From IMG/VR virus record IMGVR_UViG_3300018915_000004, positions 1 through 57,091 of that record: a stretch of DNA of 57,091 nucleotides; one strand, given 5' to 3'. Source of the stretch: a virus. Shown here one piece after another: positions 9,584-47,698 of the stretch. The notes under the pieces were generated by a model. It did no database searches, had not been told where the DNA came from, and was given only the letters and a program-made list of their open reading frames with translations. The first letter of the stretch is position 1; each line of letters starts with the position of its first letter. Made by a program: the position numbers and the translations under genes.

Positions 9584-9593
9584 AGTATAACAC
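9584..9593 (-). promoter_or_regulatory. extended -10 decamer GTGTTATACT
   Basis: Exact decamer on the - strand, 9 nt downstream of motif copy 5 and upstream of gene 9163..9522. Confidence 0.7.
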
Positions 9594-9602
9594 CTTGCCT
9601 GG

Positions 9603-9628
9603 AAGATGCAACAAATTTGAGACATCTT
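9603..9628. promoter_or_regulatory. 26-bp quasi-palindrome copy 5
   Basis: AAGATGCAACAAATTTGAGACATCTT. Identical 26/26 to copy 21. Confidence 0.9.
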
Positions 9629-9671
9629 TTTAGGTGATAGAGTAAGCGGATCTTGCTTACTCTATTTAGTG

Positions 9672-10250
9672 CTAGCGGCGGTTAGAGTAATTGGGTTCCC
9701 AGTTAAACTCATCCTCCTCATCAGCATCAGGACTAAAACCACACTGAGGACATACAAACCCATTAGGCGGCGGCAGATAACCCTTGATTTCTTCCACTGC
9801 TTCATCGTTTCTTAGCAGCAACTCATACGCCTCATCAGACTTACCCGCAAGCCATCCCACAGCCGCGATCAAGGCTTGCTCTCGACCTCTATAGTACGTT
9901 TCTCCATCAGGAGGACTAAAGGGCGCAAAATCACCGCTAGAGGCAGCAAGGCAACCGTAAGTTAGATCCCAGTATCCACTAGAGCGATCGCCCTGCCTCT
10001 CATCTCTTGGATTAGGGTCTAAAACTTCGGTAATTGCCAACTGATTAGGGAAGTGCAGATCTGAAGCTGGCAGGGCGTTCAACAGGGCGGCAACTTGCTC
10101 TAAAGGCTGTCTTGCTATCCGGTTGCTCATTATCCGCGCCTTAACCTGCTTGCTAAACTCATCCCAGGCGCTAACGCGGCGCGATCGCTCATCTGCGATC
10201 GCCTGAATCTCTCGGAAGCCTAAAACAATCTCATCATTGCTCTCATTCAT
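9672..10250 (-). CDS. hypothetical protein
   Basis: 192-aa ATG ORF with a C-terminal CPQCG motif. Confidence 0.6.
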   Translation of the reverse strand: MNESNDEIVLGFREIQAIADERSRRVSAWDEFSKQVKARIMSNRIARQPLEQVAALLNALPASDLHFPNQLAITEVLDPNPRDERQGDRSSGYWDLTYGCLAASSGDFAPFSPPDGETYYRGREQALIAAVGWLAGKSDEAYELLLRNDEAVEEIKGYLPPPNGFVCPQCGFSPDADEEDEFNWEPNYSNRR

Positions 10251-10293
10251 TAGCGGCTCTATCCTAAAGTTAGGTTTCTACATTTTAAAAGCT

Positions 10294-11085
10294 ATGGTCA
10301 CCCTAGAACCGGATCTATATCCTTTACTCAGTCGGCTTGCAACAACGTTGAACGCATCAATGGAAGTTCAAACGTTGGATATTGCAATCGCCAAGGAAGT
10401 GCAACAGATCTTGCAGGTCTGTAAAAGCGGTAAATATTTACACGGTTACTATCAGGGCGGAATAGACGGCAAAATCGGCAACCAAACCCGCGCCGCGTTT
10501 GCCGCTTTCAAGGCAGATCACTGGCTAGAATTTCCTGATGAAATAGGGCGATCCACTATCGCCGCTCTATTGGAAGTCGGGCGCGGCGTTCATCCTGTCA
10601 GTGAACAAGCGGCTAATTTTAATCAAAAGCCTTTACCTGAGGCAGGACAAAAGACAGGCGCTAAAATGACGCTCCCAACGGGAGAGATCGTCTACAGCAA
10701 TCAATGGATCTATCCTGGGTGTTATTTAACATGGGGCGAGTTCACAGCGAACTGTACCCGCAAGCTAGAACATAAATATCTGGTGGCAAATGCGATCGCC
10801 TACGCTAAAGTTTTTGGTTGGGTGCGTGACAAGTACGGCAGCGCGATAATATTGACTTCAGGCTATAGACCTCCCGCGATAAATAGAGCAGTGGGAGGCG
10901 CTAGGCAGTCAATGCACCTACAAGCACTCGCGGGAGATAAGCGCCCTCTAGATGGCAATTTGCCGCGCCTCCTAGAGGTAATGAAGGCATCGGCATTTAC
11001 AGGAATAGGTCTGGGCGGCTGTAAAGGATTTCAACACGGAGACTTAAGACCAGGCGATCGGGTTGTGTTTGGGTATGGGTGCTAA
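10294..11085 (+). CDS. endolysin: peptidoglycan-binding domain plus peptidase M15 (M15_3-like)
   Basis: GGIDGKIGNQTRAAFAAFK (PG-binding) and SGYRPPAINRAVGGARQSMHLQALAGD...GIGLGG..FQHGDLR (M15 metal ligands). ATG 10294 preferred over the TTG at 10237 used by the ORF track. Confidence 0.8.
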   Translation: MVTLEPDLYPLLSRLATTLNASMEVQTLDIAIAKEVQQILQVCKSGKYLHGYYQGGIDGKIGNQTRAAFAAFKADHWLEFPDEIGRSTIAALLEVGRGVHPVSEQAANFNQKPLPEAGQKTGAKMTLPTGEIVYSNQWIYPGCYLTWGEFTANCTRKLEHKYLVANAIAYAKVFGWVRDKYGSAIILTSGYRPPAINRAVGGARQSMHLQALAGDKRPLDGNLPRLLEVMKASAFTGIGLGGCKGFQHGDLRPGDRVVFGYGC

Positions 11086-11086
11086 T

Positions 11087-11112
11087 TCGTTAGACCAAAT
11101 TTGAGACATCAT
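11087..11112. promoter_or_regulatory. 26-bp quasi-palindrome copy 6
   Basis: TCGTTAGACCAAATTTGAGACATCAT, 1 nt after the endolysin stop codon and abutting a 13-bp-stem hairpin. Confidence 0.85.
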
Positions 11113-11147
11113 GCAGGGGTAGCAACAACTAAGATTGCTACCCCTGC
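11113..11147. terminator. 13-bp perfect hairpin between convergent genes
   Basis: GCAGGGGTAGCAA-caactaaga-TTGCTACCCCTGC. No clear U-tract on either strand. Confidence 0.55.
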
Positions 11148-11151
11148 AACT

Positions 11152-11892
11152 TTAGAGCGCCGCGATTAATTCCTTAGCTAAATCGTTAATACTGCCAATC
11201 CCTCTAAGCGTCTTACGTTTGCCGCTCATCACTAAATCAATTCGTTGCTGCTTTTGACCTAAGAGGGCATCAATCATGATATCAATGTCGCTAAGCTGCA
11301 ACCATATCGCGTTAACTGTAGATTTTTGCCCGATTCTATGCGCTCTGTCCTCTGCTTGTTCCGCGTCGCCTGGTGTCCAGGGGCGATCGCACATAATCAC
11401 ATAGCTTGCCGCTGTCAGGGTTAAGCCTACGCCTCCCGCTCTTATTGTTCCTACAAATGCTTTAGACGTTCCTGCCTGGAAGCGCTCAACCATGTCTTGA
11501 CGCTTATCTGATTCAACGTCGCCTGTCAGCAACTCTACTGAGGTTGTCTCGCCTAACGTTGCCGCGATCGCTTTGGCTGATTCTAAAAACTCAGTAAAGA
11601 TGATCACTTGTTCGCCGCTTTCTAGTAGTTCCTGTACTGTCTCAATCGCTGCTGCTGCCTTGTACTTGCTCCCAATCCGGCGCAATGCTTGCAGGGTTAC
11701 TAAAACCTCAGCATCCGGATCAACCTCTCCCAGTTCGGCGCGGCGGCGGAAGTCAGCAACAGCGGCTTGTATTTCTGAGTTGTAAGCGGCTTCATCGGCG
11801 GCGCTTAAGTCAATTGGACGGAGCGATCGCAACTTCTCAGGCAAGTCTAAACAGTCATGCTTTTTACGCTGCAAGATCACGTCTTGTGTCAT
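11152..11892 (-). CDS. stand-alone SNF2-family helicase C-terminal lobe
   Basis: ..ILQRKKHD.LDLPEK.., FTEF......L, LTGDV....RQ..V.RFQ, GGVGLTLTAAS.VI..D..WTPG...QAEDRAHRIGQ (motifs IV-VI). No DEXH N-lobe nearby. Confidence 0.7.
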   Translation of the reverse strand: MTQDVILQRKKHDCLDLPEKLRSLRPIDLSAADEAAYNSEIQAAVADFRRRAELGEVDPDAEVLVTLQALRRIGSKYKAAAAIETVQELLESGEQVIIFTEFLESAKAIAATLGETTSVELLTGDVESDKRQDMVERFQAGTSKAFVGTIRAGGVGLTLTAASYVIMCDRPWTPGDAEQAEDRAHRIGQKSTVNAIWLQLSDIDIMIDALLGQKQQRIDLVMSGKRKTLRGIGSINDLAKELIAAL

Positions 11893-11906
11893 CTTGGCAA
11901 GGTCAT

Positions 11907-12335
11907 CTAGACAAGCCGCGCCCTGGTTATCCCAAACTTGCTTACCTGTCCTAGAGTTGACAACTTTATAACCTGCCTGACAATATCTTTTTTCATAGGC
12001 ACGGCAGTTTTTGCGGGAATCGCAGCAACACTGGTTGCCTTGCCGTTGCTGTTGTTTTCCTCAGTTGCCTTTAACCGCTCCTCAATGATCGATCTTGTTG
12101 TTCCTAGTTCTTCGGCATTCATTCGTTGCCCTAAGACAGCGATCGCAATTTGCCGCCCTATCGATCCTTGCTGCCTCTCTTGCGGGTTTAGTTGCGTTGC
12201 ATTGCGTTCTAGGGAGTCTAGAAAGCACTCAAAACCGATCCGCGCTTCTAAGAGAGAGGCGTTGTCACTAAACACACTGATCACCTGTTTAAAGGTTGTA
12301 GCAGGATCGATCATGTCTGGGTTGATTATCGCCAT
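11907..12335 (-). CDS. hypothetical protein
   Basis: 142-aa ATG ORF. Its start lies 4 nt from motif copy 7. Confidence 0.6.
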   Translation of the reverse strand: MAIINPDMIDPATTFKQVISVFSDNASLLEARIGFECFLDSLERNATQLNPQERQQGSIGRQIAIAVLGQRMNAEELGTTRSIIEERLKATEENNSNGKATSVAAIPAKTAVPMKKDIVRQVIKLSTLGQVSKFGITRARLV

Positions 12336-12339: not shown

Positions 12340-12365
12340 AAGATCGCTCAAATTTGGTCTATCTT
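12340..12365. promoter_or_regulatory. 26-bp quasi-palindrome copy 7
   Basis: AAGATCGCTCAAATTTGGTCTATCTT. Identical 26/26 to copy 31. Lies between the -10 decamer and ATG 12335. Confidence 0.9.
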
Positions 12366-12392: not shown

Positions 12393-12842
12393 CTAGATCA
12401 ATGAGTCGCGGATCTCTTGCTCTTGTAGTCGCTCCTCATCGAGTTGCCGCTCTAAGCGATCGCGCTCCTGCTTGGCTTTGTTGATAGAGACGTTGTTTAG
12501 CAGATGGAGCAACCTTGCTGAGTCTTGATCTCTGCCCATCTTTTTAAGGTTGTCGGCTGTCTCTACCACTAAACGGGCGCTCTGAAAGCTTGTGGCTCTC
12601 ATCCCAACTTTGACGGCGATCAAGCTTACACTACGACCGCGCTTACTGGTCACTGGCAAGCCGCCCTTGTTTTTGTTCCTGCTTGCGGCGCTTTTGCGCT
12701 GTCTCCCTAGCTCTGTTTCATGGCACCAGAAAAGATCCAACGCCATCCTTACACGCTCCTCTACAAGCAACTCTACCAAACAACTCTCATCTGGGTTATC
12801 GACATTTTCAATCGTTGCGATCGCTAAACTCTTCTTATTCAT
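12393..12842 (-). CDS. hypothetical protein
   Basis: 149-aa ATG ORF with a basic central region. Confidence 0.6.
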   Translation of the reverse strand: MNKKSLAIATIENVDNPDESCLVELLVEERVRMALDLFWCHETELGRQRKSAASRNKNKGGLPVTSKRGRSVSLIAVKVGMRATSFQSARLVVETADNLKKMGRDQDSARLLHLLNNVSINKAKQERDRLERQLDEERLQEQEIRDSLI

Positions 12843-12846: not shown

Positions 12847-12872
12847 AAGTTGTCTCAAATTCAATACATCTT
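12847..12872. promoter_or_regulatory. 26-bp quasi-palindrome copy 8 (degenerate core)
   Basis: AAGTTGTCTCAAATTCAATACATCTT, 4 nt from ATG 12842. Confidence 0.65.
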
Positions 12873-12882
12873 AGTGTAGCAC
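12873..12882 (-). promoter_or_regulatory. -10 decamer variant GTGCTACACT
   Basis: 8/10 match to the decamer, directly abutting motif copy 8 on the - strand. Confidence 0.45.
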
Positions 12883-14020: not shown

Positions 14021-14046
14021 TTGATAGCTCAAATTTGAGACATCAT
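14021..14046. promoter_or_regulatory. 26-bp quasi-palindrome copy 9
   Basis: TTGATAGCTCAAATTTGAGACATCAT. Encodes the last residues (..MMSQI*) of the ParB-domain protein. Confidence 0.85.
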
Positions 14047-16133: not shown

Positions 16134-16143
16134 AGTATAACAC
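16134..16143 (-). promoter_or_regulatory. extended -10 decamer GTGTTATACT
   Basis: Exact decamer on the - strand, 39 nt upstream of ATG 16095. Overlaps the edge of motif copy 10. Confidence 0.7.
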
Positions 16144-16167
16144 CGTAATTCAAATTTGAGACATCTT
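16142..16167. promoter_or_regulatory. 26-bp quasi-palindrome copy 10 (one half degenerate)
   Basis: ACCGTAATTCAAATTTGAGACATCTT. Confidence 0.65.
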
Positions 16168-16181: not shown

Positions 16182-16207
16182 AAGATGTCTCAAATTTAGC
16201 CTATCTT
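16182..16207. promoter_or_regulatory. 26-bp quasi-palindrome copy 11
   Basis: AAGATGTCTCAAATTTAGCCTATCTT. Overlaps the helicase stop at 16196. Together with copy 10 it forms GAGACATCTT-N14-AAGATGTCTC. Confidence 0.75.
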
Positions 16208-17932: not shown

Positions 17933-18191
17933 TGTTGCTTATTGTGGTTTGACCGAAGCGATCGCCTAAAGATTCCCTCAAGTCTTTAACCGAGGTGTAA
18001 CCCTCAAGAGTTGCCAACTTAGACAGGGTAGAGTCTAGTAGTTTGTGACGCTCCAGTAATATCCAAAGCATCAAAACCGTATTTAGGAATGATGAAAAGC
18101 TTCTAAAATTCCAGCTATTTTGTGTCTCAGCGATCCAATCATATACCTGTGTCCAACTGTAAAAAGCAAGTTGAGCTTTGTTAGTCGCCAT
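17901..18191 (-). CDS. hypothetical protein
   Basis: 96 aa from ATG 18191 (MATNKAQ..). The track start at 18281 lies inside motif copy 12. Confidence 0.5.
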   Translation of the reverse strand: MATNKAQLAFYSWTQVYDWIAETQNSWNFRSFSSFLNTVLMLWILLERHKLLDSTLSKLATLEGYTSVKDLRESLGDRFGQTTISNNDTTAKGLSD

Positions 18192-18255
18192 TGTCAGTTT
18201 TAATAAAGTGCAATACCCTATCTTAGCTTGAAGGCACGTTAAGGCAATACACTCT

Positions 18256-18281
18256 AAGATGTCCCAAATTTGGGCGATCAT
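18256..18281. promoter_or_regulatory. 26-bp quasi-palindrome copy 12
   Basis: AAGATGTCCCAAATTTGGGCGATCAT. Overlaps stop 18278-18280. Confidence 0.85.
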
Positions 18282-19445: not shown

Positions 19446-19455
19446 GGTATAACAC
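19446..19455 (-). promoter_or_regulatory. -10 decamer variant GTGTTATACC
   Basis: 9/10 match, 14 nt downstream of motif copy 13. Confidence 0.6.
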
Positions 19456-19469: not shown

Positions 19470-19495
19470 ATGATGTCTCAAATTTGGTCTAACTT
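19470..19495. promoter_or_regulatory. 26-bp quasi-palindrome copy 13
   Basis: ATGATGTCTCAAATTTGGTCTAACTT. Overlaps stop 19494-19496. Confidence 0.85.
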
Positions 19496-23162: not shown

Positions 23163-23188
23163 GAGATAGACCAAATTTGAGCTATCAT
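23163..23188. promoter_or_regulatory. 26-bp quasi-palindrome copy 15
   Basis: GAGATAGACCAAATTTGAGCTATCAT. Overlaps stop 23185-23187. Confidence 0.85.
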
Positions 23189-25985: not shown

Positions 25986-26011
25986 AAGATAGCTCAAATT
26001 TGAGACATCTT
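25986..26011. promoter_or_regulatory. 26-bp quasi-palindrome copy 16
   Basis: AAGATAGCTCAAATTTGAGACATCTT. Overlaps stop 25994-25996. On the - strand it is followed 1 nt later by TATAAG. Confidence 0.9.
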
Positions 26012-27443: not shown

Positions 27444-27453
27444 AGTGTAACAC
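27444..27453 (-). promoter_or_regulatory. -10 decamer variant GTGTTACACT
   Basis: 9/10 match, 9 nt downstream of motif copy 17 and 24 nt (including AGGAGG) upstream of ATG 27419. Confidence 0.7.
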
Positions 27454-27462: not shown

Positions 27463-27488
27463 AAGATCGCCCAAATTTGAGCTATCTT
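27463..27488. promoter_or_regulatory. 26-bp quasi-palindrome copy 17
   Basis: AAGATCGCCCAAATTTGAGCTATCTT. Overlaps stop 27487-27489. Confidence 0.9.
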
Positions 27489-28445: not shown

Positions 28446-28455
28446 GTGTTATACT
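28446..28455 (+). promoter_or_regulatory. extended -10 decamer GTGTTATACT
   Basis: Exact decamer, 28 nt after motif copy 18 and 67 nt upstream of ATG 28523. Confidence 0.7.
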
Positions 28456-28889: not shown

Positions 28890-30387
28890 ATGCAGGTTTA
28901 GAGCGCTGTTGTTGCCTCATCTCTTCAAGCTGTTTTTTGAAATCTTCAGGCATAGGCGATCGCTCAACTGTACCCTTAGCCTGATTATTGCCTGAATCAG
29001 GGCTAGGCGCTCCCTGGACAGGCGAGGCAGTGTTTTGTGAGCAATCCACCACGGAGGCACTAGAGGCGGCTTGCTGCTGCTGTAATTTGCGGAAGCGATC
29101 CGCGTCCGTTTGGGCGGCTATCTCGTGATCCACCTGTGAGCCGCCGCCTTTTTTGTTCGCCCTTGCGATCGCTGCTTGCTTGAACTTCTCAGGGTTGCTC
29201 ATAAACTCTTGCCATTCATCAACGCTTAGACACAGGGATTGCCATTTTGTTGGATCTTTCTCGTAACTCCTGATCGTGTCTGCTGCTTTTTTGGTTGCTT
29301 GCTCATCGTTCCAATAGCGCCAAGCAAAAAACTTAAGGAAGCCACGATCAAGATCGTTGCAATGTTGCCCAAGGATTCTACGGGTTTTAGTCCTGTAAAG
29401 GTAGATACGATCGCACATCACGCGATCCGCAAGTGCTTGCAATTCCTCTTGGGTATATGTTCCCAGGTTGTCACCATTGCCGTATGCCTCCTCTAACTCA
29501 TCTATCCTCTGTTGCCCTACCAGGAACCGAGGCGCTTTAGTATTGTTATCACGCGCTGCCTCGGAACCTTGATCTAATGAATCAATAAGGCTGTTACAGA
29601 CAGTGTAAGTATTGTTATCAAGATCGCCCAAATTTGGGACGGCTTGAGAATTGCGATCGCTTGCTTCCGGTTGCTCCAACTCCAAAACTTCTACTTCAAC
29701 GGATTGGCTTTGTGTGTGTGTGTCTGACTCCTGCGCGCGCGCGTTAGTCTCACTCAAATGATCTAATTTAATTTGATCTTTTTTTGTTTCTTCTATATAG
29801 ATGAACGTGCCATTTTGTGTACCTTCGATAGTGCCATTTTGTGTACCTTCGATAGTGCCATTTTGTGTACCTTCGATAGTGCCATTTTGTGTACCTTCGG
29901 ATTTTTCCGATAGTGCCAATTCTGGTACTATCGGATTTTGCGTTGTTTCAGCCATTACAGCCTCTAAAATCAACTTTCCAATAGTCTCAGGATTGGGTCT
30001 GTAAAATTTTGTTCGATTCCAGCTTTTTACTACACATTGTGCTGAAATGACATAATTCGATTTTTCTAAGTCAAGCAATAAGCGTTGCAGCGATCGCTTG
30101 CTTCCGAGCGCTGGGTAAATTTGCGCCCACTGTTCGTACGTTGCTGCTGTCCACCATTCGCCATCCTGAAAATAATGTGTTTTGCCATGCAATGCGTTGT
30201 ATTGGCACCAGTCTTCTATGACCTCTACAAACAGAGCTTGATTAATCCCTATCTTGTTTGCGACCTGCCAGATTAACTTTGTGTACTTGAGTCGATGCAA
30301 TGTCTTGTACGCCGCGATCGCTGATGCTGTTGAAATAGTGTCTTGCGATGCTGACGTATTACGTGTTATACTTTTTCTCAATTCCAT
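28888..30387 (-). CDS. replication initiator-like protein (N-terminal HTH) containing in-frame iteron repeats
   Basis: N-terminus ..IGINQALFVEVIEDWCQYN...DGEWWTAATYEQWAQIYPALGSKRSLQRLLLDLEKSNYV resembles DnaD/replisome-organiser type HTH domains. EGTQNGTI occurs four times. Confidence 0.5.
   Translation of the reverse strand: MELRKSITRNTSASQDTISTASAIAAYKTLHRLKYTKLIWQVANKIGINQALFVEVIEDWCQYNALHGKTHYFQDGEWWTAATYEQWAQIYPALGSKRSLQRLLLDLEKSNYVISAQCVVKSWNRTKFYRPNPETIGKLILEAVMAETTQNPIVPELALSEKSEGTQNGTIEGTQNGTIEGTQNGTIEGTQNGTFIYIEETKKDQIKLDHLSETNARAQESDTHTQSQSVEVEVLELEQPEASDRNSQAVPNLGDLDNNTYTVCNSLIDSLDQGSEAARDNNTKAPRFLVGQQRIDELEEAYGNGDNLGTYTQEELQALADRVMCDRIYLYRTKTRRILGQHCNDLDRGFLKFFAWRYWNDEQATKKAADTIRSYEKDPTKWQSLCLSVDEWQEFMSNPEKFKQAAIARANKKGGGSQVDHEIAAQTDADRFRKLQQQQAASSASVVDCSQNTASPVQGAPSPDSGNNQAKGTVERSPMPEDFKKQLEEMRQQQRSKPA
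29620..29645. promoter_or_regulatory. 26-bp quasi-palindrome copy 19 (inside rep coding sequence)
   Basis: AAGATCGCCCAAATTTGGGACGGCTT, encoding AVPNLGDLD. On the - strand TACACT lies 12 nt downstream. Confidence 0.75.
29807..29930. repeat. four 24-bp direct repeats plus a degenerate fifth copy: candidate iterons / origin
   Basis: GTGCCATTTTGTGTACCTTCGATA at 29807, 29831, 29855 and 29879 (last copy diverges at its end). Flanked by an AT-rich tract at 29757-29800, (TG)6 at 29711-29723 and (GC)5 at 29733-29743. Confidence 0.75.
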
Positions 30388-30581
30388 TGCTTTGATTGTC
30401 TGTGATCCGCCGTAGCGGTAGGACTCACGGCGGTTGTGTACAATGCCCTCTCCTCTGATTTGCTACTCTGGGAGAGGGCGCAACTTTTTGCGGGATGCTT
30501 ACCTACCAGCAGCCCTCAAAAAACTTTAGATTAATTACCTAGCGGAAATATACAGGGAATGTACGGATCAAGGGTGTGATA

Positions 30582-30815: not shown

Positions 30816-30838
30816 CTGTCAAGTGTTATACTGTCAAG
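30816..30838 (+). promoter_or_regulatory. rightward early promoter: GTGTTATACT bracketed by the direct repeat CTGTCAAG x2
   Basis: CTGTCAAG-TGTTATA-CTGTCAAG. The decamer is at 30823-30832. On the - strand each repeat reads TTGACA. ATG 30861 lies 28 nt downstream and is preceded by AAGAGG. Confidence 0.7.
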
Positions 30839-31291: not shown

Positions 31292-31792
31292 ATGCAACAG
31301 CAATTGCTACTACCCAGCGAGACAGACCGATCGCGCCGCGCCAAGGAATACTTGAGATCCAAGCTTGTGTATCCCTTTGAGATCTTGAGGATTGAGCGCC
31401 GCGCTGCAACAATCACGCATCCCATCTACAAAAGGGCGGTGATTAGCTTGGTAGGTGAGAAAGAGTATCACGAGCAACGCGAGGCAAGATCGCTCAAATT
31501 TGAGACATCATTGACGCTCAAGGAATTGCCGGATACTGAAGAGTTTAAGGATGCGATCGCCTATTTTTGGGCGTGTTGTGCAAATGAGATTGATCTCCCT
31601 GAAATGTTGACACTAGAGCAAGAGTTAAGGGAGATACGCGATCGCTTTCGTGTCTACTGGTCTTTGTATGAGTGCAACTGGCAACAATGCCTCTTGTTGT
31701 TGCAGGACTATCCCGACGAATTATGCTTAGAGAATATCAACCGAGCCAAGCAGGAGTTAAAGCGCCGTGATAGAGCTAAAACAATTGCCTGA
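31292..31792 (+). CDS. hypothetical protein
   Basis: 166-aa ATG ORF, 2 nt after the upstream stop. Confidence 0.65.
   Translation: MQQQLLLPSETDRSRRAKEYLRSKLVYPFEILRIERRAATITHPIYKRAVISLVGEKEYHEQREARSLKFETSLTLKELPDTEEFKDAIAYFWACCANEIDLPEMLTLEQELREIRDRFRVYWSLYECNWQQCLLLLQDYPDELCLENINRAKQELKRRDRAKTIA
31486..31511. promoter_or_regulatory. 26-bp quasi-palindrome copy 20 (inside coding sequence)
   Basis: AAGATCGCTCAAATTTGAGACATCAT, encoding ARSLKFETSL. On the - strand GTGATACT follows after ~14 nt, so an antisense promoter is possible. Confidence 0.75.
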
Positions 31793-33253: not shown

Positions 33254-33741
33254 TCGGGTTGCTCCTGTTGCTTTTGCTTCTCTTTAGATAGTATCGTACT
33301 TTCTCCTAAAGATGCAACAAATTTGAGACATCTTTCCTCTACCTCTTTTTGTTCCAGCGCTGATTGATATCTGGCAGTTAGTAAACGTTGCTGTAACTCT
33401 AGCCGCGCTGCTTCTTTTTCTTGGTTAATCCTGATGATTTCCAGATCTGCCGCTATCTTCTGCTTAATGTAAAAATCGTACTGCCAGAGCAAGAAGCGGA
33501 TTTTCCGCCGTGGGTGTTGGATAGCATCAAGTAATCGAGTATTAAAACGCCAGATTGCCAGATTGACTCTACCCATAGGCGATCGCCAGAATTCTTTTAC
33601 ATCTTTGCAATTGGTTGCTTGGATCTGTGTCTTGCCTGGATGTGTTTCTATCCAAGCTTTGAGCGATCTTTCCTCATCTAATTGCCCAGACCATGTTAGA
33701 GCGTCGATCAGTCTCCATTTAGTTTGTACATTCTGATCCAT
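33250..33741 (-). CDS. hypothetical protein
   Basis: 163-aa ATG ORF. Contains motif copy 21 near its 3' end. Confidence 0.6.
   Translation of the reverse strand: MDQNVQTKWRLIDALTWSGQLDEERSLKAWIETHPGKTQIQATNCKDVKEFWRSPMGRVNLAIWRFNTRLLDAIQHPRRKIRFLLWQYDFYIKQKIAADLEIIRINQEKEAARLELQQRLLTARYQSALEQKEVEERCLKFVASLGESTILSKEKQKQQEQPE
33290..33299 (-). promoter_or_regulatory. -10-like GTACGATACT
   Basis: The GATACT hexamer lies 13 nt downstream of motif copy 21 and 36 nt upstream of ATG 33253. Confidence 0.5.
33309..33334. promoter_or_regulatory. 26-bp quasi-palindrome copy 21 (inside coding sequence)
   Basis: AAGATGCAACAAATTTGAGACATCTT. Identical to copy 5. Encodes RCLKFVASL. Confidence 0.85.
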
Positions 33742-34909: not shown

Positions 34910-34935
34910 GAGATGTCTCAAATTTGAGCTATCTT
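34910..34935. promoter_or_regulatory. 26-bp quasi-palindrome copy 22
   Basis: GAGATGTCTCAAATTTGAGCTATCTT, followed after 10 nt by GTATCATACT. Confidence 0.9.
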
Positions 34936-34945: not shown

Positions 34946-34955
34946 GTATCATACT
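34946..34955 (+). promoter_or_regulatory. -10 decamer variant GTATCATACT
   Basis: 8/10 match at the usual distance from the motif. Confidence 0.5.
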
Positions 34956-34974
34956 CGGTTGTCAGCAGCCTTGG

Positions 34975-34988
34975 AAGTATGGCACTAT
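34975..34988 (+). promoter_or_regulatory. 14-nt element AAGTATGGCACTAT (copy 1 of 2)
   Basis: Identical to 36730-36743. Lies 29 nt upstream of ATG 35018. The predicted TSS is at the edge of motif copy 23. Confidence 0.5.
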
Positions 34989-34993: not shown

Positions 34994-35019
34994 AAGACGT
35001 ATCAAACTTGAGACATCAT
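34994..35019. promoter_or_regulatory. 26-bp quasi-palindrome copy 23 (degenerate)
   Basis: AAGACGTATCAAACTTGAGACATCAT. Its last two bases are the AT of ATG 35018. Confidence 0.65.
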
Positions 35020-37302: not shown

Positions 37303-37342
37303 ATGATGTCTCAAATTTGGGCGATCATTCTTGAGACATCTT
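37303..37342. promoter_or_regulatory. 26-bp quasi-palindrome copy 24 plus an extra half-site
   Basis: ATGATGTCTCAAATTTGGGCGATCAT (37303-37328) followed by TCTTGAGACATCTT. Confidence 0.85.
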
Positions 37343-37349: not shown

Positions 37350-37359
37350 GTGTGATACT
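37350..37359 (+). promoter_or_regulatory. -10 decamer variant GTGTGATACT
   Basis: 9/10 match, 7 nt after the extra half-site and 30 nt upstream of ATG 37390. Confidence 0.6.
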
Positions 37360-40478: not shown

Positions 40479-40504
40479 AAGATAGACCAAATTTGAGCTA
40501 TCTT
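40479..40504. promoter_or_regulatory. 26-bp quasi-palindrome copy 26
   Basis: AAGATAGACCAAATTTGAGCTATCTT, 2 nt after stop 40476. Confidence 0.9.
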
Positions 40505-40513: not shown

Positions 40514-40523
40514 GTGTTATATT
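40514..40523 (+). promoter_or_regulatory. -10 decamer variant GTGTTATATT
   Basis: 9/10 match, 9 nt downstream of motif copy 26. Confidence 0.65.
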
Positions 40524-41347: not shown

Positions 41348-41373
41348 AAGATGTCTCAAGTTTGTTGCATCTT
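41348..41373. promoter_or_regulatory. 26-bp quasi-palindrome copy 27
   Basis: AAGATGTCTCAAGTTTGTTGCATCTT. This is the reverse complement of copies 5 and 21 with one core change. Confidence 0.85.
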
Positions 41374-41384: not shown

Positions 41385-41394
41385 GTATTACACT
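41385..41394 (+). promoter_or_regulatory. -10 decamer variant GTATTACACT
   Basis: 8/10 match, 11 nt after motif copy 27 and 25 nt upstream of ATG 41420. Confidence 0.55.
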
Positions 41395-41419: not shown

Positions 41420-41782
41420 ATGTTAGATCAAAAAGTTACTTGGTTAGGATCGGAAGTTAAGCCAGTCAAAAGCGGCAATTTAATCTCTTTTAGGTTGTTT
41501 ACAAAAAAAGGCAGTCAGTACAACGGAGAGAGAGGCGCGGCTCACATACCCGCTAAATTGTTTGGTTGCTCCCTGATTAACCTGCCTGATATGTTCTACT
41601 CTGTCAGGGTTATGGAAGGGCGGCAAGTAGAGGTGAGTGTTCTTGCTTGGAGAAACGGAGAATACAAGATCTCGTATTGTGGGCATAAATACTGGGCGGC
41701 TGATCATTGCGTTGCTGTTGATCCCCCCTACGCTGAGGCGATCGCTTCTTGGATTAACCTGAGTCAGCGGCAAGCAATATAA
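41420..41782 (+). CDS. hypothetical protein
   Basis: 120 aa from ATG 41420 (MLDQKV..). The track start at 41351 lies inside motif copy 27. Confidence 0.55.
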   Translation: MLDQKVTWLGSEVKPVKSGNLISFRLFTKKGSQYNGERGAAHIPAKLFGCSLINLPDMFYSVRVMEGRQVEVSVLAWRNGEYKISYCGHKYWAADHCVAVDPPYAEAIASWINLSQRQAI

Positions 41783-41865: not shown

Positions 41866-41891
41866 ATGATGTCTCAAGTTTGAGCGATCAT
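41866..41891. promoter_or_regulatory. 26-bp quasi-palindrome copy 28
   Basis: ATGATGTCTCAAGTTTGAGCGATCAT. TATGTA lies 11 nt downstream. Sits at the head of the packaging/structural operon. Confidence 0.85.
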
Positions 41892-41916
41892 TAAGGCGGT
41901 AGTATGTAAAAGGATA

Positions 41917-42483
41917 TTGCTTTGTGAGGTTGCAAGGTTGGTTAGGAAACAGAGGAAAATTCAGCAGCAGGAAGAGACACCAGAACAAGCGAGGCAGCAG
42001 CTAGAGGAGGCAGCAGAGGGCAAGCCAGAGATAGAGATTCTAGAGACAAAGCAGCATTTGATCGCGCCGGATCTCGATTTTATTGGTGATTTCTCACCCT
42101 GGCAAATCCAAGCGCTTATCCCTCTTGCTAGAGGAGACAACGCGCCTAAGGTTGCCGCAAAGATAGGGAAAGATGTTAAAACCTTATACCGGATCATGGA
42201 CGATCCGGATTATCGGAAAGCTTTGGAGGCTACAACCTCTTATCTGTACACTTACGGTTTAAGAAATTGCGCGATCGCAACCGTTGAGGCGACAGACTTC
42301 TTGCGGAAAACCTTAAGAGATGAGGACGCAAAAACAGCCGATAGACTTAAGGCGGCTCAGATAATTATTGACCAGGGCGATCGCTGGCAAAATCAGCGCT
42401 TAGAGGTGAAACTAGCCGAACTAGAGAAGCAGCTAAAGGCGCGGCTAGAGAATGAGGCAAAGCTAACTGAGGAGGAGGAGTGA
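41917..42483 (+). CDS. terminase small subunit (tentative)
   Basis: 188 aa with a TTG start. HTH-like ..ARGDNAPKVAAKIGKDVKTLYRIMDDPDYRKAL. Lies directly upstream of the large terminase, with start/stop overlap. Confidence 0.55.
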   Translation: MLCEVARLVRKQRKIQQQEETPEQARQQLEEAAEGKPEIEILETKQHLIAPDLDFIGDFSPWQIQALIPLARGDNAPKVAAKIGKDVKTLYRIMDDPDYRKALEATTSYLYTYGLRNCAIATVEATDFLRKTLRDEDAKTADRLKAAQIIIDQGDRWQNQRLEVKLAELEKQLKARLENEAKLTEEEE

Positions 42484-44030
42484 CGGCAACCAAGCGCCAA
42501 TTGCAACGCCGCCTAACTGCAATTGAGAAGCAATCAGCGCTTGTAGAAATCAAACCATTAACCAAAAGGCAGCGATCGCAACGTCGCTGCCTTCATTTGT
42601 TCCTTAAGGGCGCTTGGGACGTTTTAGAGCCTAGGCGAACTTTGGAGGACAACTGGCACCTGGAATTGATTGCAGAGTACCTGGAAGCAATCAGCGCGGG
42701 AGAGTTGCAAAAAGTACTGATCAACATTGCGCCGCGCTCTCTTAAATCGGTTGAATGTTCCGTTTGCTTTCCCTGCTGGGATTGGTTGCATAACCCTTGG
42801 CGGCGGTTCTTGTGTATGTCCTACAGCGGCTTGCTAGCGAATGATCACAACGACCTGAGGCGATCGCTCATCAAGTCTAGTTGGTATCAGACCCTATGCC
42901 AGGGAAAAATTGTATTGTCATCAGGAGCAACACGCGGAACATCGCAGCAGGTTAAAAACCGGATCTCTGAATTTGCCAACAACTACCGAGGGCAAATGGT
43001 CAGCCGTGGTTTAGAAGGATCGGTCACAGGCGTAGGCGGCGACATTTTACTTTTTGATGACCCTAACAACCCTGAGAAGTCGGAAAGTAAAAGCGATCGC
43101 CAAGGCACAGAGAAAAAGTTTAGAGATTACGCTTTTGGGCGGCGTAACAATGCTAAAACGGCGGCGATCTTGGTTATTCAGCAACGCACCCACAAGAAAG
43201 ATGTTAGCGGCGTTGTAATTGATGATCTCAATGAGGGTGACTGGGAGATCATCAAGCTACCTACCCACTGTAGAAGCTATACAGAGGTAAAGTTTCCTAG
43301 AAGTGGGAAAACCATCATTAGAGAGCCTGGTAGCTTTCTACAGGCTTCTAGGCATGGGGAAAAAGAAGACAAGGAAGCTAAAAAGATCCTGGGTAGCTTG
43401 ATGTACTCAGGCAGACACGATCAGTCGCCAATTGATGAGGAGGGCGGCATATTCCCGCGTAAATGGTACAGAATACCTCTGGCTAAGTTGCCGCCGCGCC
43501 GCGCCCTTGCAATGTCAGTTGATGCAAGCTTTGGATCGACATCGGCAACAGCAAGCTTTGTTGTTGTGGGTATGTGGGCGATCGCCTACCCTAACTTTAT
43601 TCTTTTGGATGTTTGGCGCAAGCGTTGCGGCTTTTCTGAGACTAAAAAAGCGATCCGCGATATGCGCTCAAAATGGCAACCCTACGGCGCAATCTTGACA
43701 ACGCTGATTGAGAAAAAAGCAAACGGCGCGAGCGTCTTAGAAGATCTACAGCTAGAATTCCCTGGTTTGATTCCCTATGACCCTAAGCAAGACTCAAAGC
43801 AAGCTAGGGCAAATTTTGCCGCGCCGTTTTATGAATCTGGCAACGTTCTTGTATTGGATGACCCGGACGCGCCTTGGTTTGTTGATTACCAATTAGAGTT
43901 AGAGGGTTTCCCTAATGGGGAGGACGATGATCAAGTTGATATGTCGGCTCAGATCATTGCCTATTTTATCCACAAGTGGAGGAGACAGCAGCAGGAGCAA
44001 GAAGGAACCACGGCAACAATGAACGGCTGA
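42480..44030 (+). CDS. terL: terminase large subunit
   Basis: 516 aa. ATPase blocks INIAPRSLKS and LLFDDPNNPE. C-terminal nuclease block ..SVDASFG...EKKANGASV..L......P....K..RA...AP..ESG.V......W......E...FPNGEDDDQVDM. Confidence 0.85.
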   Translation: MTATKRQLQRRLTAIEKQSALVEIKPLTKRQRSQRRCLHLFLKGAWDVLEPRRTLEDNWHLELIAEYLEAISAGELQKVLINIAPRSLKSVECSVCFPCWDWLHNPWRRFLCMSYSGLLANDHNDLRRSLIKSSWYQTLCQGKIVLSSGATRGTSQQVKNRISEFANNYRGQMVSRGLEGSVTGVGGDILLFDDPNNPEKSESKSDRQGTEKKFRDYAFGRRNNAKTAAILVIQQRTHKKDVSGVVIDDLNEGDWEIIKLPTHCRSYTEVKFPRSGKTIIREPGSFLQASRHGEKEDKEAKKILGSLMYSGRHDQSPIDEEGGIFPRKWYRIPLAKLPPRRALAMSVDASFGSTSATASFVVVGMWAIAYPNFILLDVWRKRCGFSETKKAIRDMRSKWQPYGAILTTLIEKKANGASVLEDLQLEFPGLIPYDPKQDSKQARANFAAPFYESGNVLVLDDPDAPWFVDYQLELEGFPNGEDDDQVDMSAQIIAYFIHKWRRQQQEQEGTTATMNG

Positions 44031-46121: not shown

Positions 46122-46742
46122 ATGGACGTAATTCTTAATCCTGAAGTTCCCTGTGGTTTCTACTTGGGAAAACTTTGTAAGTTAGAGCATAGATGGCAAG
46201 GACTGCCACAATCCCTTAGATATTCCAGCACTAGGCAGTGTAAAGAATGTAAAAGTAATTGGCGGCAAGCTTCAATTGCACCTAGTGCTGGTATTGAATA
46301 TTTCAGAAATTACAAAGCAGTGAACAGAGCAACAATAAGGCGGCAACAGCGAGAAAGGCTTTTAGATCCTGTCAAGGCGGCTAAAGATCTCCAACAAAAA
46401 AACGCTTACAAGAAAACAGTTAAAGGGAAACTTTCAGACAAGCGGTATAAATACAAACGTCGAGCATTAGAGTCTACGGCTTACAATGCTCAAGAACTTA
46501 GCGATCGCTTTGCTATGTTTAACAATATTTGTGCCTACTGTGGCACTCTTGATGTACTTACCGTAGATCACTTTGTTGCACTTTCACGCGGCGGCAAAGA
46601 TGAAATCTTTAACATTGTTCCCGCTTGTAGGCGCTGCAATTGCTCAAAGAACGATAGGGAGGCTTGGGACTGGTATAGCAATCAATCGTTTTTTGACTGG
46701 TATGCTTGGAATGTGATAATGGAAGTTCTAGAAATAAGTTGA
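46122..46742 (+). CDS. HNH endonuclease (paralog 3 of 3)
   Basis: CAYCGTLDVLTVDHFVALSRGGKDEIFNIVPACRRCNCSKND plus an N-terminal CKLEH..CKEC. ATG 46122 preferred over the TTG at 46032. Confidence 0.8.
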   Translation: MDVILNPEVPCGFYLGKLCKLEHRWQGLPQSLRYSSTRQCKECKSNWRQASIAPSAGIEYFRNYKAVNRATIRRQQRERLLDPVKAAKDLQQKNAYKKTVKGKLSDKRYKYKRRALESTAYNAQELSDRFAMFNNICAYCGTLDVLTVDHFVALSRGGKDEIFNIVPACRRCNCSKNDREAWDWYSNQSFFDWYAWNVIMEVLEIS

Positions 46743-46743
46743 C

Positions 46744-46769
46744 AAGATAGCCCAAATTTGAGACATCAA
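46744..46769. promoter_or_regulatory. 26-bp quasi-palindrome copy 30
   Basis: AAGATAGCCCAAATTTGAGACATCAA. Starts 1 nt after the HNH stop and ends 4 nt before ATG 46774. Confidence 0.85.
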
Positions 46770-46773
46770 AATT

Positions 46774-47475
46774 ATGAACATAGAGCAGTTACTAGCATTG
46801 CTTGGGACGATTGAGGCAGTAAGTAAAGACACAATCGCGGGTATCCGTTCCGCTTATGAAGCAGCAACACGGGAAAGTGAGACGTGGAAAAAGAGGGCAG
46901 ATAAGGCAGAAGCCTCAGTTACCCGACTTAATGAGTTGATCGGCGGTTCTGATAAAGATGCTAAGACAGCATTAGAAGATCTGCAAAAGAAAATTACAGA
47001 CTTGACGGCTGAGCGCGATCAGTTCAAAACTAAGAGCGAGTCTTTGGAAGCGGATATCAAACGCGCCCAAAAGCTTGATCAACTGGGTGCGATCGCTGCC
47101 AAGGCAGGAATTGATCGAGAGGGATTAGCAACAGCGATCAAGGCAGGGTTGCTCCCAGAGGATAAAACGGTTGTTGTGGGAGAGGGCGACGCGGCAAAAA
47201 TTCAGGTAGACGGCAAAGATATTAAGGAATTTTTGAAAACTCAGCCGTTTCTTGAGAGGGCGCTGATCGTCCCTCCTGCCAATGGTAGTGATCAAGGCAA
47301 CCCAGACGCTAACACCAACAATGGACAACTACAGCCTCAAAATCAACAGCAAACGCCTACGGGAGGGCAACAGCAACAAACACCCACAGCAGGAACAAGC
47401 GGCGGCAATGCTGGCAAAAATCCAATTCTAGGGGCGATCGCTGAACTAGGGTTCAAAGTTCCAGGGGTGAAGTAG
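46774..47475 (+). CDS. scaffolding protein (GP20-like)
   Basis: 233 aa. Coiled-coil N-terminus, ..GIDREGLATAIKAGLLPED..IQVDGKDIKEFLKTQPFL.., and a Q/G-rich tail. Positioned before the capsid genes. Confidence 0.6.
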   Translation: MNIEQLLALLGTIEAVSKDTIAGIRSAYEAATRESETWKKRADKAEASVTRLNELIGGSDKDAKTALEDLQKKITDLTAERDQFKTKSESLEADIKRAQKLDQLGAIAAKAGIDREGLATAIKAGLLPEDKTVVVGEGDAAKIQVDGKDIKEFLKTQPFLERALIVPPANGSDQGNPDANTNNGQLQPQNQQQTPTGGQQQQTPTAGTSGGNAGKNPILGAIAELGFKVPGVK

Positions 47476-47545
47476 ACTGTAAAAAGCTAACCTCACAAGT
47501 CTAAACACTTTGGGTAATTGCGCGATACAAGCGAACGGTAAAAGT

Positions 47546-47582
47546 AAAAAGGGATCAACGCTGCCTGTTGATCCCTTTTTTT
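47546..47582. terminator. bidirectional rho-independent terminator
   Basis: AAAAA-GGGATCAAC-gctgcct-GTTGATCCC-TTTTTTT. Confidence 0.8.
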
Positions 47583-47637
47583 ATCCTAAGAAAGGAGCTT
47601 TTCTCATGGTGTCTTCATCTTAACCCACCGTGAAAAA
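47546..47637 (-). ncRNA. candidate ~90-nt sRNA
   Basis: Bounded by a consensus promoter (TTGACT-17-TATACT with a TGT extension, 47644-47672) and the strong terminator. Has no ORF and contains CUCCUUUCU. Confidence 0.45.
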
Positions 47638-47643
47638 TTAAAT

Positions 47644-47672
47644 AGTATAACACTTATTAGGTTGAGAGTCAA
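47644..47672 (-). promoter_or_regulatory. strong sigma70-type promoter: TTGACT - 17 nt - (GTGT)TATACT
   Basis: Exact decamer at 47644-47653 on the - strand and a -35 TTGACT at 47667-47672. It points away from all neighbouring genes. Confidence 0.7.
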
Positions 47673-47698
47673 TTAAGATTAGCTGAAGCAGGGTGATC

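Follow-up and report, generated by a model that had tools for sequence, protein, structure and literature searches.

Putative extended -10 promoters and an associated 26-bp palindrome in the genome of an uncultured cyanophage

Results

The genome and its relatives

The DNA considered here is the whole of IMG/VR virus record IMGVR_UViG_3300018915_000004 (57,091 nt, referred to below as the window). Our subject is a repeated decamer, GTGTTATACT, which very probably serves as a promoter -10 element, together with a 26-bp palindrome, AAGATnnnnCAAATTTGnnnnATCTT, that lies in phase with some of its copies. The first 127 nt of the window (1-127) are the same as the last 127 nt (56965-57091), which gives a circular genome of 56,964 bp; the window is the closed genome of an uncultured contractile-tailed (myovirus-like) cyanophage. 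The cyanobacterial HIP1 octamer GCGATCGC is present in 124 copies over the window, where 0.87 would be expected. On the curated gene map 89.7% of the sequence is coding and 10.3% non-coding. Gene products were identified with PHROGs and Pfam, each run on part of the ~70 open reading frames (ORFs), and the families recognized are given in Table 1 with the other features; the majority of the early genes have no match in either. Neither tRNA genes nor Rfam families were found in the window.

A megablast search with 25 kb against 50,697 phage records gave no match, a tblastn search of phages with the terminase large subunit (TerL) reached a best identity of only 32%, and TerL had no match in IMG/VR. 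Relatives were located by protein searches with TerL and the helicase in Logan, ENA and JGI assemblies. Seven related contigs (L162, L163/L170, L164, L165, L166, L167 and L168) have 64-95% helicase or 70-74% TerL identity, and the gene order is conserved between them and the window. The complete contigs of the group are Logan SRR33118843_973662 (60.4 kb), SRR27231848_437, SRR17841885_156176 and _213041 and SRR19019150_2502, and ENA ERZ27229718 k119_115189 (59.1 kb). An ENA contig reached via the Rep protein (L169; ERZ27286113 k141_619673, 57,057 bp) is the same phage, 100% identical over 21 kb, the sole difference being a 48-nt copy-number change in the GTQNGTIE tandem repeat of rep, near 29852; it was useless as a footprinting partner for the regulatory region at 28-34 kb.

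The decamer

Exact copies of the decamer number seven, against 0.06 expected from dinucleotide shuffles (both strands). The initial annotation had listed six of these, all with the correct coordinate and strand, but had overlooked the copy at 30363-30372 (+). With up to one mismatch there are 12 sites against 2.15 expected; the four nine-of-ten variants listed earlier (19446-, 27444-, 37350+ and 40514+) are all present, and a further one-mismatch site at 41384- (GTGTAATACT) is the opposite-strand reading of 41385+ and has no gene downstream. With up to two mismatches 46 sites are found genome-wide against 32.9 expected, the whole excess consisting of the 12 good sites, and the two-mismatch class by itself is at chance level. 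The two eight-of-ten variants that had been reported, 34946+ (GTATCATACT) and 41385+ (GTATTACACT), do exist but belong to this chance-level class, and they are credible only because a palindrome lies 14-15 nt upstream of them in intergenic DNA.

At least nine of the 12 good sites fall within the non-coding tenth of the genome (P = 2e-7 for nine), a count that rises to 11 after correction of the start codons of genes 27165-27419 and 41430-41782. A same-strand start codon is found 9-101 nt downstream of 10 of the 12 (nine on the curated map, and 41385+ once its gene starts at 41430).

The element reads G-T-G-Y-T-A-T-A-C-T, i.e. TGnTAnnnT, with T at -15, G at -14, any base at -13 and the hexamer TATACT at -12 to -7. 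TG and TAnnnT are retained by all seven exact copies and by most of the nine-of-ten copies, while TG is missing from the variants at 33290, 34946 and 41385. When 40 sites from the window and the related contigs are aligned, all ten decamer positions hold 0.7-2.0 bits, values inflated by the fact that the sites were picked by the decamer itself, and every flanking position holds 0-0.5 bit. Since the flanks are near-random, the decamer is not a piece of a longer repeat; its being part of a longer repeat or mobile unit was ruled out on this ground. TATACT -10 hexamers have been mapped by 5' rapid amplification of cDNA ends in the filamentous cyanobacterium Dolichospermum, at the sxt promoters PsxtD and PsxtP (PMC7027233).

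The proposal that the decamer is the extended -10 of sigma-70-type promoters is well supported by its form, its placement in non-coding DNA, its orientation, the -35 boxes and terminator-bounded units described below, and its retention in relatives. From this evidence GTGTTATACT is, with high probability, a sigma-70-type -10 element.

-35 hexamers and short terminator-bounded units

Two decamers without a palindrome have a canonical -35 hexamer (TTGACT-17-TATACT at 47644- and TTGCGA-18-TATACT at 30363+), and the counterparts of 47644 in L162 and L164 have TTGACA-18-TATACT. A -35 at 17-18 nt in the palindrome-free copies has the signature of a sigma-70-family holoenzyme. At most decamers no matching -35 hexamer lies 16-18 nt upstream; one is present at 47644, 30363 and 37350, and is supplied elsewhere by the TTGCAT half-site described below. 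A generic sigma-70 -35/-10 scan found no excess of canonical promoters (22 vs 21.9 and 30 vs 25.8 expected) and picked up just three decamers, the palindrome-free 47644 and 30363 plus 37350. This null result fits a genome whose promoters depend on the -10 alone, although, those three decamers apart, it may equally be taken as evidence neither way.

Both 30363+ and 47644- are followed ~90-115 nt downstream by a strong hairpin and a T run with no ORF between, which delimits two candidate small RNAs (Table 1). A promoter and a terminator bracketing a short unit are hard to explain unless the promoter works. The 30379-30490 unit contains no ORF of at least 60 amino acids (aa) and has no Rfam match; its RNA would run antisense to the leader and initial codons of rep (28888-30387(-)), an arrangement that looks like plasmid-style antisense copy control. 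The N-terminus of Rep resembles the 'Replication protein' of Nostoc strains. The 47545-47637 unit lies between the scaffold and head-decoration genes, with a near-consensus promoter (TTGACT-17-TGTTATACT) and a 14-bp terminator stem; in L162 and L164 the equivalent promoter drives genes of 116-119 aa instead.

The palindrome and its phase with the decamer

The palindrome occurs at 32 sites in the window, 28 of which score at least 12/14 against 0.1 in shuffles, and the pieces of the relatives carry 2-15 sites per 10-22 kb. Several half-sites contain part of HIP1 (AAGATCGC...). About 20 of the 32 sites have no -10 box of any kind. Where the two elements are paired, in the window and the relatives, the end of the palindrome is separated from the hexamer by 13 nt in 10 pairs, 14 nt in four, 12 nt in two, and 11 and 15 nt in one each; the range of 11-15 nt holds 18 of 30 pairs, against ~0.3 predicted from how often decamer-like words occur in the background.

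The spacings reported earlier are correct at 9603, 27463, 33309 and 40479 (13 nt), at 34910 (14 nt) and at 41348 (15 nt). Two others are weak: at 29620 the 12-nt spacing leads to a hexamer, TACACT, without TG and inside the rep coding region, and at 41866 the 11-nt spacing leads to TATGTA, which lacks both TG and the final T, a better TAGTAT being found at 8 nt. To describe the decamer as typically ~13 nt downstream of the palindrome was too strong, as just one of the seven exact copies in the window, 9584, fits. The copy at 12371 has its palindrome downstream, 16134 has palindromes at 2 and 42 nt, 28446 has one at 32 nt, and 30363, 30823 and 47644 have no full palindrome. The fixed spacing is thus significant across the family, but it is one of several arrangements, two of which (the palindrome downstream of the -10, and the palindrome with no -10) had been overlooked.

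Four arrangements can be distinguished. In class A the palindrome spans about -51 to -26, ending ~13 +/- 1 nt before the hexamer and overlapping the -35 region. In class B the -10 is followed after 0-8 nt by the palindrome, lying over +1, and after another 2-5 nt by the ATG; this order is kept upstream of the adjacent genes 12393-12842 and 11907-12335 and of their homologues in L165, L166, L167 and L170. Class C consists of palindromes without a -10, 0-7 nt before start codons, mostly of late genes, and class D of decamers with a canonical -35 and no palindrome. The distance from a palindrome to the ATG of the next long ORF is bimodal, with a sharp mode at 0-7 nt (18 sites, peak at 3-5 nt) and a broad mode at 28-100 nt that includes the promoter-bearing palindromes. 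The ATG-hugging position of class C is kept in spite of a long gap at the portal gene in four genomes and at the tape-measure gene.

The earlier arithmetic, by which the class A palindrome is centred near -38 and offers a TTGnnn hexamer with a 19-nt spacer, is correct; the centre is at about -38.5, a value that depends on the assumed start site. As a working -35, however, TTGAGC/TTGGGC is not supported, the 19-nt spacer being beyond the usual 16-18 nt. A different half-site variant, TTGTTGCATCTT, is found solely on the promoter-proximal side of class A palindromes (5/5: 9603, 33309 and 41348 in the window, L167 17887 and L170 15307). It supplies a -35-like TTGCAT at 16-18 nt in four of the five cases and is the sole half-site variant to do so, a picture that resembles the classic repressor layout in which the operator overlaps a genuine -35.

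Some neighbouring arrangements were also observed. Upstream of the small-terminase gene three genomes share a layout in which the palindrome is followed after 5-8 nt by TAGTAT, TACGAT or TAGGAT without TG (window 41866-41905, L162 9393-9430, L164 4021-4055); this may be the late-operon promoter. The decamer-like words at 34946+ and 34976- (GTGCCATACT) face each other 20 nt apart (34946-34985), each 12-14 nt from its own palindrome (34910 and 34994), and could be convergent promoters or chance. About 20 nt downstream of the -10 at 9584 there is a GC-rich hairpin (9545-9568) that is kept in five genomes with a stem sequence differing each time, each sequence having been folded individually; it looks like a 5'-leader structure, a stabiliser or an attenuator.

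Conservation in relatives

GTG[T/C]TATACT is retained upstream of the same genes in the relatives, while flanks and spacers have diverged. Syntenic promoters are found at a 688-aa gene in five genomes, at the homologue of 9163-9522 in five and at 27165-27419 in two. The arms of the palindrome are the same in all relatives (AAGATGT...ACATCTT) and its centre is lineage-specific: AAATTT in the window and L168, AAATCT or AGATTT in L165 and L166, AAGCTT in L162, L164 and L167, and AAACTT in L163 and L170. A constant -10 word beside a drifting palindrome is what would be expected if a conserved host enzyme reads the former and a co-evolving phage protein the latter.

Both elements are missing from a more distant contig (L171, from a Symploca metagenome-assembled genome; 42% helicase identity). 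Searches for the palindrome pattern in IMG/VR, GTDB genomes and JGI metagenomes returned single-copy, chance-like matches only and no multi-copy locus, and the composite ACATCTT-N9-GTGYTATACT gave only single chance-like matches in IMG/VR. On these comparisons the promoter grammar is specific to a small clade.

Nature of the palindrome and candidate binding proteins

Pairing at the variable positions of the palindrome is 72.7%, compared with 76.7 +/- 1.6% in column shuffles (499 of 500 shuffles were higher), and the covariation score is 0.082 compared with 0.133. The same variable tetramer is found in both halves in none of the 27 strong copies, where 4.3 are expected (P = 0.009), and complementarity at the variable positions is 37 against 51 +/- 5.8 expected; perfect dyads seem to be selected against. 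The variable tetramers are drawn from a small set (GTCT, AGCT, AGAC, CGCT, CGCC, GCAA and a few others) that includes reverse-complement pairs. With no covariation and with pairing below that of shuffles, a hairpin was ruled out. In L165, copies with either asymmetric centre, CAAATCTG or CAGATTTG, are found along one and the same direction of transcription. The three conserved blocks lie about one helical turn apart, which points to a dimeric protein bound along one face of the double helix, and the palindrome is probably a protein operator.

No CRP/FNR or other activator domain was detected in the scanned ORFs with Pfam and PHROGs, and a host factor could still fill this role; in cyanobacterial genome contigs the palindrome pattern has single chance-like matches only. 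An RNA polymerase or sigma factor was likewise absent from the Pfam and PHROGs results and from PDB-sequence scans of seven early proteins. A divergent sigma factor, RNA polymerase or integrase could be among the many orphan proteins. Three candidate binders are listed in Table 1. The basic 149-aa protein is conserved in the four relatives whose stretches cover that region. The 62-aa ORF lies between the exact decamers at 30363 and 30823, next to the mini-palindrome AAGATATAAACAATCTT (30787-30803). Searches of PDB sequences, and with a profile of the four 149-aa homologues, gave nothing significant.

Other features of the window

The coordinates of all sites are collected in Table 1. At its convergent end the late operon carries a palindrome that sits within a terminator-like hairpin of 12 bp (8501-8533; AGCGCCCAAG...TTGGGCGCT with a T-rich tail). 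One of the HNH genes sits between portal and scaffold, and some relatives have no HNH gene at the corresponding positions. L165 and L166 encode the SNF2-family helicase in one gene of 763-775 aa, of which the window retains just two pieces in the region 11152-12335(-), an N-terminal ORF at 11907-12335 and a C-terminal ORF at 11152-11892; ~1.2 kb has apparently been lost from the middle of the gene.

Table 1. Decamers, palindromes, candidate RNAs and genes of the window (window coordinates unless a contig is named)
Position	Strand	Feature	Remarks
9584..9593	-	Putative -10, exact, class A	Palindrome 13 nt upstream; 61 nt before ATG of 9163-9522(-); syntenic promoter in L165, L166, L167, L170
12371..12380	-	Putative -10, exact, class B	Palindrome 12340-12365 5 nt downstream, then AATT-ATG; syntenic L165 15558, L166 15689
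12873..12882	-	Putative -10, variant GTGCTACACT, class B	Abuts degenerate palindrome 12847-12872, then AATC-ATG; syntenic L165 15057, L167 16169, L170 14994
16134..16143	-	Putative -10, exact	Two palindromes ahead (16142-16167 overlapping; 16182-16207); syntenic L165 11788, L166 11803, L167 12731, L168 8513
19446..19455	-	Putative -10, variant GTGTTATACC	Nearly leaderless, with 9 nt to the ATG; palindrome 18 nt upstream
27444..27453	-	Putative -10, variant GTGTTACACT, class A	13 nt from palindrome; gene 27165-27419(-), start as called in L169; syntenic L165 328
28446..28455	+	Putative -10, exact	Palindrome 28392-28417 32 nt upstream, divergent gap; 67 nt before 95-aa protein 28523-28810
30363..30372	+	Putative -10, exact, no palindrome	-35 TTGCGA at 30343-30348, 18-nt spacer
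30823..30832	+	Putative -10, exact	Upstream only 17-bp mini-palindrome AAGATATAAACAATCTT; 28 nt before ATG of 30861-31289
33290..33299	-	Putative -10, variant GTACGATACT, class A	13 nt from palindrome 33309-33334; no TG
34946..34955	+	Putative -10, variant GTATCATACT, class A	14 nt from palindrome 34910-34935; no TG; credible by context only
37350..37359	+	Putative -10, variant GTGTGATACT	Half-site TTGAGACATCTT (37331-37342) 11 nt upstream, giving TTGAGA-17-GATACT; full palindrome 37303-37328 25 nt upstream
40514..40523	+	Putative -10, variant GTGTTATATT, class A	13 nt from palindrome 40479-40504; heads rightward block leading to structural genes
41385..41394	+	Putative -10, variant GTATTACACT, class A	15 nt from palindrome 41348-41373; no TG
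47644..47653	-	Putative -10, exact, no palindrome	-35 TTGACT 47667-47672, 17-nt spacer; syntenic TTGACA-18-TATACT at L162 17728(-), L164 8982(-)
1637..1662		Palindrome without -10	Between late genes; 14 nt before ATG
2335..2360		Palindrome without -10	4 nt before ATG of tail gene 2365-3363
4207..4232		Palindrome without -10	5 nt before in-frame ATG at 4238
8501..8526		Palindrome	Inside terminator-like hairpin, convergent end of late operon
9603..9628		Palindrome	Promoter-proximal half is TTGTTGCATCTT; partner of P9584
11087..11112		Weak palindrome copy	After endolysin gene
12340..12365		Palindrome over +1 of P12371	4 nt before ATG
12847..12872		Degenerate palindrome	Abuts -10 at 12873; 4 nt before ATG
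14021..14046		Palindrome	Over stop codon of 14029-16095; hairpin next
16142..16167		Half-degenerate palindrome	Overlaps decamer 16134 by 2 nt
16182..16207		Palindrome	Upstream partner at P16134
18256..18281		Palindrome	Contains ATG of 17901-18281(-)
19470..19495		Palindrome	Upstream of P19446
21930..21955		Palindrome	28 nt upstream of 21416-21901(-)
23163..23188		Palindrome	Gene junction
25986..26011		Palindrome, best consensus match (2 mismatches)	3' end of 25994-26293(-)
27463..27488		Palindrome	Of P27444
28392..28417		Palindrome	In divergent gap 28351-28522
29620..29645		Palindrome	Inside rep gene
31486..31511		Palindrome	Inside 31292-31792
33309..33334		Palindrome	Of P33290; sequence same as 9603
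34910..34935		Palindrome	Of P34946
34994..35019		Palindrome	Last bases overlap ATG of 35018-36097
37303..37328		Palindrome	Upstream of P37350
38410..38435		Weak palindrome copy	After terminator-like hairpin
40479..40504		Palindrome	Of P40514
41348..41373		Palindrome	Of P41385
41866..41891		Palindrome	Upstream of small-terminase gene; TAGTAT 8 nt downstream; similar in L162, L164
44277..44302		Palindrome	4 nt before portal ATG, far end of 276-nt gap; position kept in L162, L163, L164
46744..46769		Palindrome	4 nt before scaffold ATG
50206..50231		Palindrome	3 nt before ATG of 50235-50645
54605..54630		Palindrome	5 nt before ATG 54636 of tape-measure gene crossing circular junction
30379..30490	+	Candidate small RNA	From 30363 promoter; ends in hairpin 30445-30479 and T run; fold -44.2 kcal/mol, z = -3.1
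47545..47637	-	Candidate small RNA	From 47644 promoter; ends in terminator hairpin 47551-47575 and T run; fold -33.9 kcal/mol, z = -5.05
L165 ~19575-19600; L166 ~19745-19770; L167 ~18840-18875; L170 ~15360-15385		Leader hairpin of 9584-type promoter	In relatives
12393-12842		Candidate binder, basic 149-aa protein	Behind class B promoter; invariant GGLPxTSKRGxS...KVG...TSF
28523-28810		Candidate binder, 95-aa protein	Sub-threshold HTH_23 match; divergent regulatory gap
30582-30770	-	Candidate binder, 62-aa ORF	Ribbon-helix-helix pattern by eye (RPTLGWRVPAEQVSEVEALKQQLG...); no family match
28888-30387	-	DnaD-like replication initiator (rep)	PHROGs/Pfam
42480-44030		Terminase large subunit (TerL)	PHROGs/Pfam
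51956-53383		Tail sheath	PHROGs/Pfam
ATG 54636		Tape measure, spans circular junction	PHROGs/Pfam
1-8.5 kb		Baseplate and fibre genes	PHROGs/Pfam
24598-25185, 33708-34367, 46122-46742		HNH endonucleases (n=3)	PHROGs/Pfam
		Portal, major head protein	PHROGs/Pfam
		DEAD-box helicase, DNA methyltransferase, M15 endolysin, FHA protein	PHROGs/Pfam

Discussion

A proposed model of promoters and operator

On balance we slightly favour a reading of the whole in which host sigma-70 extended -10 promoters are combined with the operator of a phage regulator, acting most likely negatively. About 15 promoters marked by GTG[T/C]TATACT would be read by host RNA polymerase in the form of a sigma-70-family holoenzyme, most likely SigA, and would drive the non-structural genes at 8.6-42 kb and the two small non-coding RNAs, with transcription starting ~7 nt downstream of the hexamer. 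The near-invariance of the decamer may be explained because most of these promoters are without a usable -35, so that the binding energy would come almost entirely from the extended -10.

The palindrome would be a separate element, the operator of a phage-encoded dimeric DNA-binding protein. In class A the bound protein would occlude RNA polymerase at the -35 region, in class B it would block initiation or early elongation, and in class C it would act as a roadblock. The consensus promoters without a palindrome, those of the antisense RNA against rep, the 47644 RNA and 30823, would stay on. Net negative control by the palindrome-binding protein is put forward tentatively, at somewhat less than even confidence, and we lean towards it over activation because the -10 is already consensus, because the class B palindrome lies over +1, and because class C offers no promoter to activate; it is the class B and C arrangements that tilt the balance. 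The palindrome-free consensus promoters cluster around a plasmid-type Rep and its antisense RNA, the place where promoters would be expected to be on in a silent carried state. A bolder form of this proposal, which we regard as speculative and rather doubtful, is that one phage factor reads the 26-bp dyad in three registers (at ~-38.5, over +1, and 0-7 nt before late starts) and so times or silences the whole genome through a gene-start mark; the drift of the dyad centre would then reflect immunity-like groups, and, taken with the antisense RNA to the plasmid-type rep, the clade would be one of cyanobacterial phage-plasmids with a symmetric stoperator-like network.

Several points weigh against the favoured reading. 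The decamer is more uniform than recognition by host sigma-70 strictly demands, the C at -8 being nearly invariant. The 13 +/- 1 nt spacing is kept while the palindrome drifts, which fits a stereospecific contact between an activator and polymerase and is needless for a simple repressor. A repressor sitting at late-gene starts implies a silent (lysogenic or plasmid-like) state, and no integrase, partition gene or repressor family was matched in the ORFs scanned with Pfam and PHROGs. Of the candidate binders, a single-sequence AlphaFold model of the 149-aa protein was poor (predicted local distance difference test score, pLDDT, of 51), and the model of the 95-aa protein (pLDDT 66) had no significant structural match in Foldseek. 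The relatives are covered as stretches of ~10-22 kb, so that site counts per genome are incomplete, and the case rests throughout on sequence and comparison.

Alternative explanations

As discussed above, the tight spacing in lineages whose palindromes have diverged is a reason to consider that the palindrome binder is instead a class II-type activator, bound at ~-38.5 to switch on middle or late promoters and acting as a repressor where its site lies over +1, a dual behaviour as in NtcA, CRP/FNR, lambda CI or phi29 p4. Palindrome-linked promoters have no canonical -35, their layout is that of the cyanobacterial 'type 2' promoter (an activator site and a -10, without a -35), and the weakest -10 boxes, which would be the most activator-dependent, are those nearest the structural operon (40514, 41385 and the TAGTAT next to the small-terminase gene). 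We nevertheless consider an activator unlikely, with perhaps a quarter of our confidence behind it: a consensus extended -10 should work unaided, the centre is at -38.5 and not -41.5, some 20 of the 32 palindromes stand without a -10 and hence offer nothing to activate, the scanned ORFs contain no CRP/FNR-like or other activator domain, and TTGTTGCATCTT, always promoter-proximal and giving a -35-like TTGCAT in four of five cases, makes the site look like an operator over a real -35, in the style of repression. The uniformity of the decamer raises a different question, namely whether it is a phage-specific element read by a phage sigma-like factor or by a phage-modified polymerase. All ten positions, including the usually loose -8, are uniform over ~40 sites in eight genome pieces, the architecture is missing from L171 and from IMG/VR, and a divergent sigma could hide among early proteins that mostly belong to no family. 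This is improbable, however, as the sequence is that of a textbook sigma-70 extended -10, a TTGACA-type -35 stands at 17-18 nt wherever the palindrome is absent, the first genes have to be transcribed at a time when no phage protein has yet been made, the scanned ORFs show no sigma or polymerase domain, and the choice of sites by the decamer has inflated the uniformity.

Two further explanations concern the palindrome. It could be chiefly a recombination or cassette boundary, with or without its promoter, through which gene modules are exchanged among related phages, as in the promoter-plus-stem-loop (PeSL) cassettes of T4-type phages, its nearness to -10 elements and start codons being a by-product. 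The sites do lie at gene boundaries, hugging start codons even in long gaps (44277 and 54605; L162 13075, L164 6309), and the gene content beside them varies (an extra gene at L167 11836-12699, the HNH genes, the SNF2 deletion). Yet the fixed 13-nt spacing goes beyond what cassette joining alone would give, class B is kept at the same two genes in five genomes, and perfect dyads, the best substrates for recombination or cruciform extrusion, are avoided, and we give this explanation a small chance, a shade below that of a phage-specific reader. The palindrome might also act as RNA, as a hairpin or a linear leader serving as terminator, processing site or translational operator, the decamer being merely a neighbouring promoter. 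In classes B and C it forms the 26-30 nt directly 5' of the AUG, distances to the ATG peak sharply at 3-5 nt and fall between -5 and +8 nt for 18 sites, and there is a resemblance to the start-associated sequences of Cluster K mycobacteriophages (PMC3203893). We regard this as the least probable of the alternatives, far less probable than an activator, since there is no covariation and pairing at the variable positions is below that of shuffles, the centre CAAATTTG leaves no room for a loop, class A copies lie upstream of the start site and outside the transcript, and asymmetric centres occur in both orientations relative to transcription in L165.

Comparison with known systems

Extended -10 promoters (TGnTATAAT) are used by sigma-70-family holoenzymes, including at some phage promoters, and the 'TRTG' -16 region is a feature of Gram-positive promoters. 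The middle and late promoters of Thermus phage P23-45 reportedly rely on an extended -10. The sites described here resemble such promoters in having TG one base upstream of TAnnnT, a -35 that is mostly absent or poor, strong constraint on the -10, and a position 9-101 nt before genes; they differ in the hexamer TATACT, the near-fixed C at -8 and the fixed G at -16, and there is no sign of a phage factor that disables -35 recognition. Class II activator promoters of the CRP/FNR kind have their site at -41.5, and those of the NtcA type combine GTA-N8-TAC with a -10 box and no -35. The dyad site over the -35 region, at a fixed distance from the -10 and with no canonical -35, is similar, but it is 26 bp long, centred ~3 bp closer and unrelated in sequence, no CRP-family protein was found, the -10 is consensus, and most sites are not beside a promoter. 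PeSL cassettes combine a palindrome with a strong sigma-70 early promoter, and their stem-loop is a true hairpin or terminator. A repeated module of palindrome and promoter between small early genes is shared with them, whereas the present palindrome has no hairpin covariation and is also found in the late operon.

The stoperators of Cluster A mycobacteriophages, to which repressors of the L5 gp71 type bind as monomers, are asymmetric sites of 13-14 bp that follow the direction of transcription (PMC9283540, PMC6550527). Both systems have ~30 sites spread over the genome, in the short gaps between genes of the early as well as the late operons. One class of site overlaps the early promoter, and in both systems the site diverges between related phages, as in immunity groups. 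In contrast to the asymmetric, oriented stoperators, however, the present site is 26 bp, dyad-symmetric and orientation-free, and no repressor or integrase was found; of the immunity repressor and temperate style that go with stoperators, the plasmid-like Rep and the antisense RNA are the only hints. In Cluster O mycobacteriophages a 17-bp dyad repeat, TGTTCGGNNNCCGAACA, is present in more than 30 copies beside 8-9 SigA-like promoters (PMC4351075). With this repeat and the Cluster K start-associated sequences (PMC4351075, PMC3203893) the palindrome shares dozens of copies at gene boundaries, symmetry (Cluster O) or adjacency to starts (Cluster K), and a variable centre without an orientation signal. 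It differs from them in that a subset is in precise, conserved phase with a -10 and the half-sites are non-identical, and host phylum and sequences are unrelated. Phage promoters with an operator are the expected kind of gene control, and both extended -10 promoters and many-site operator networks are already known.

Significance

We know of almost nothing on transcription in freshwater and benthic cyanophages beyond the T4- and T7-like groups. Being readable from sequence, the promoter grammar would give an operon map for a phage whose genes mostly have no family, and it adds two candidate regulatory RNAs. The compact cyanobacterial promoters (TTGACT-17-TGTTATACT), which are very probably strong, could serve as genetic parts, and the 26-mer offers a handle for fishing out the regulator. 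The seven related contigs, with their diverged operator centres, form a natural series for the co-evolution of regulator and site. The main value of the finding is as an entry point to an uncharacterised clade of cyanophages.

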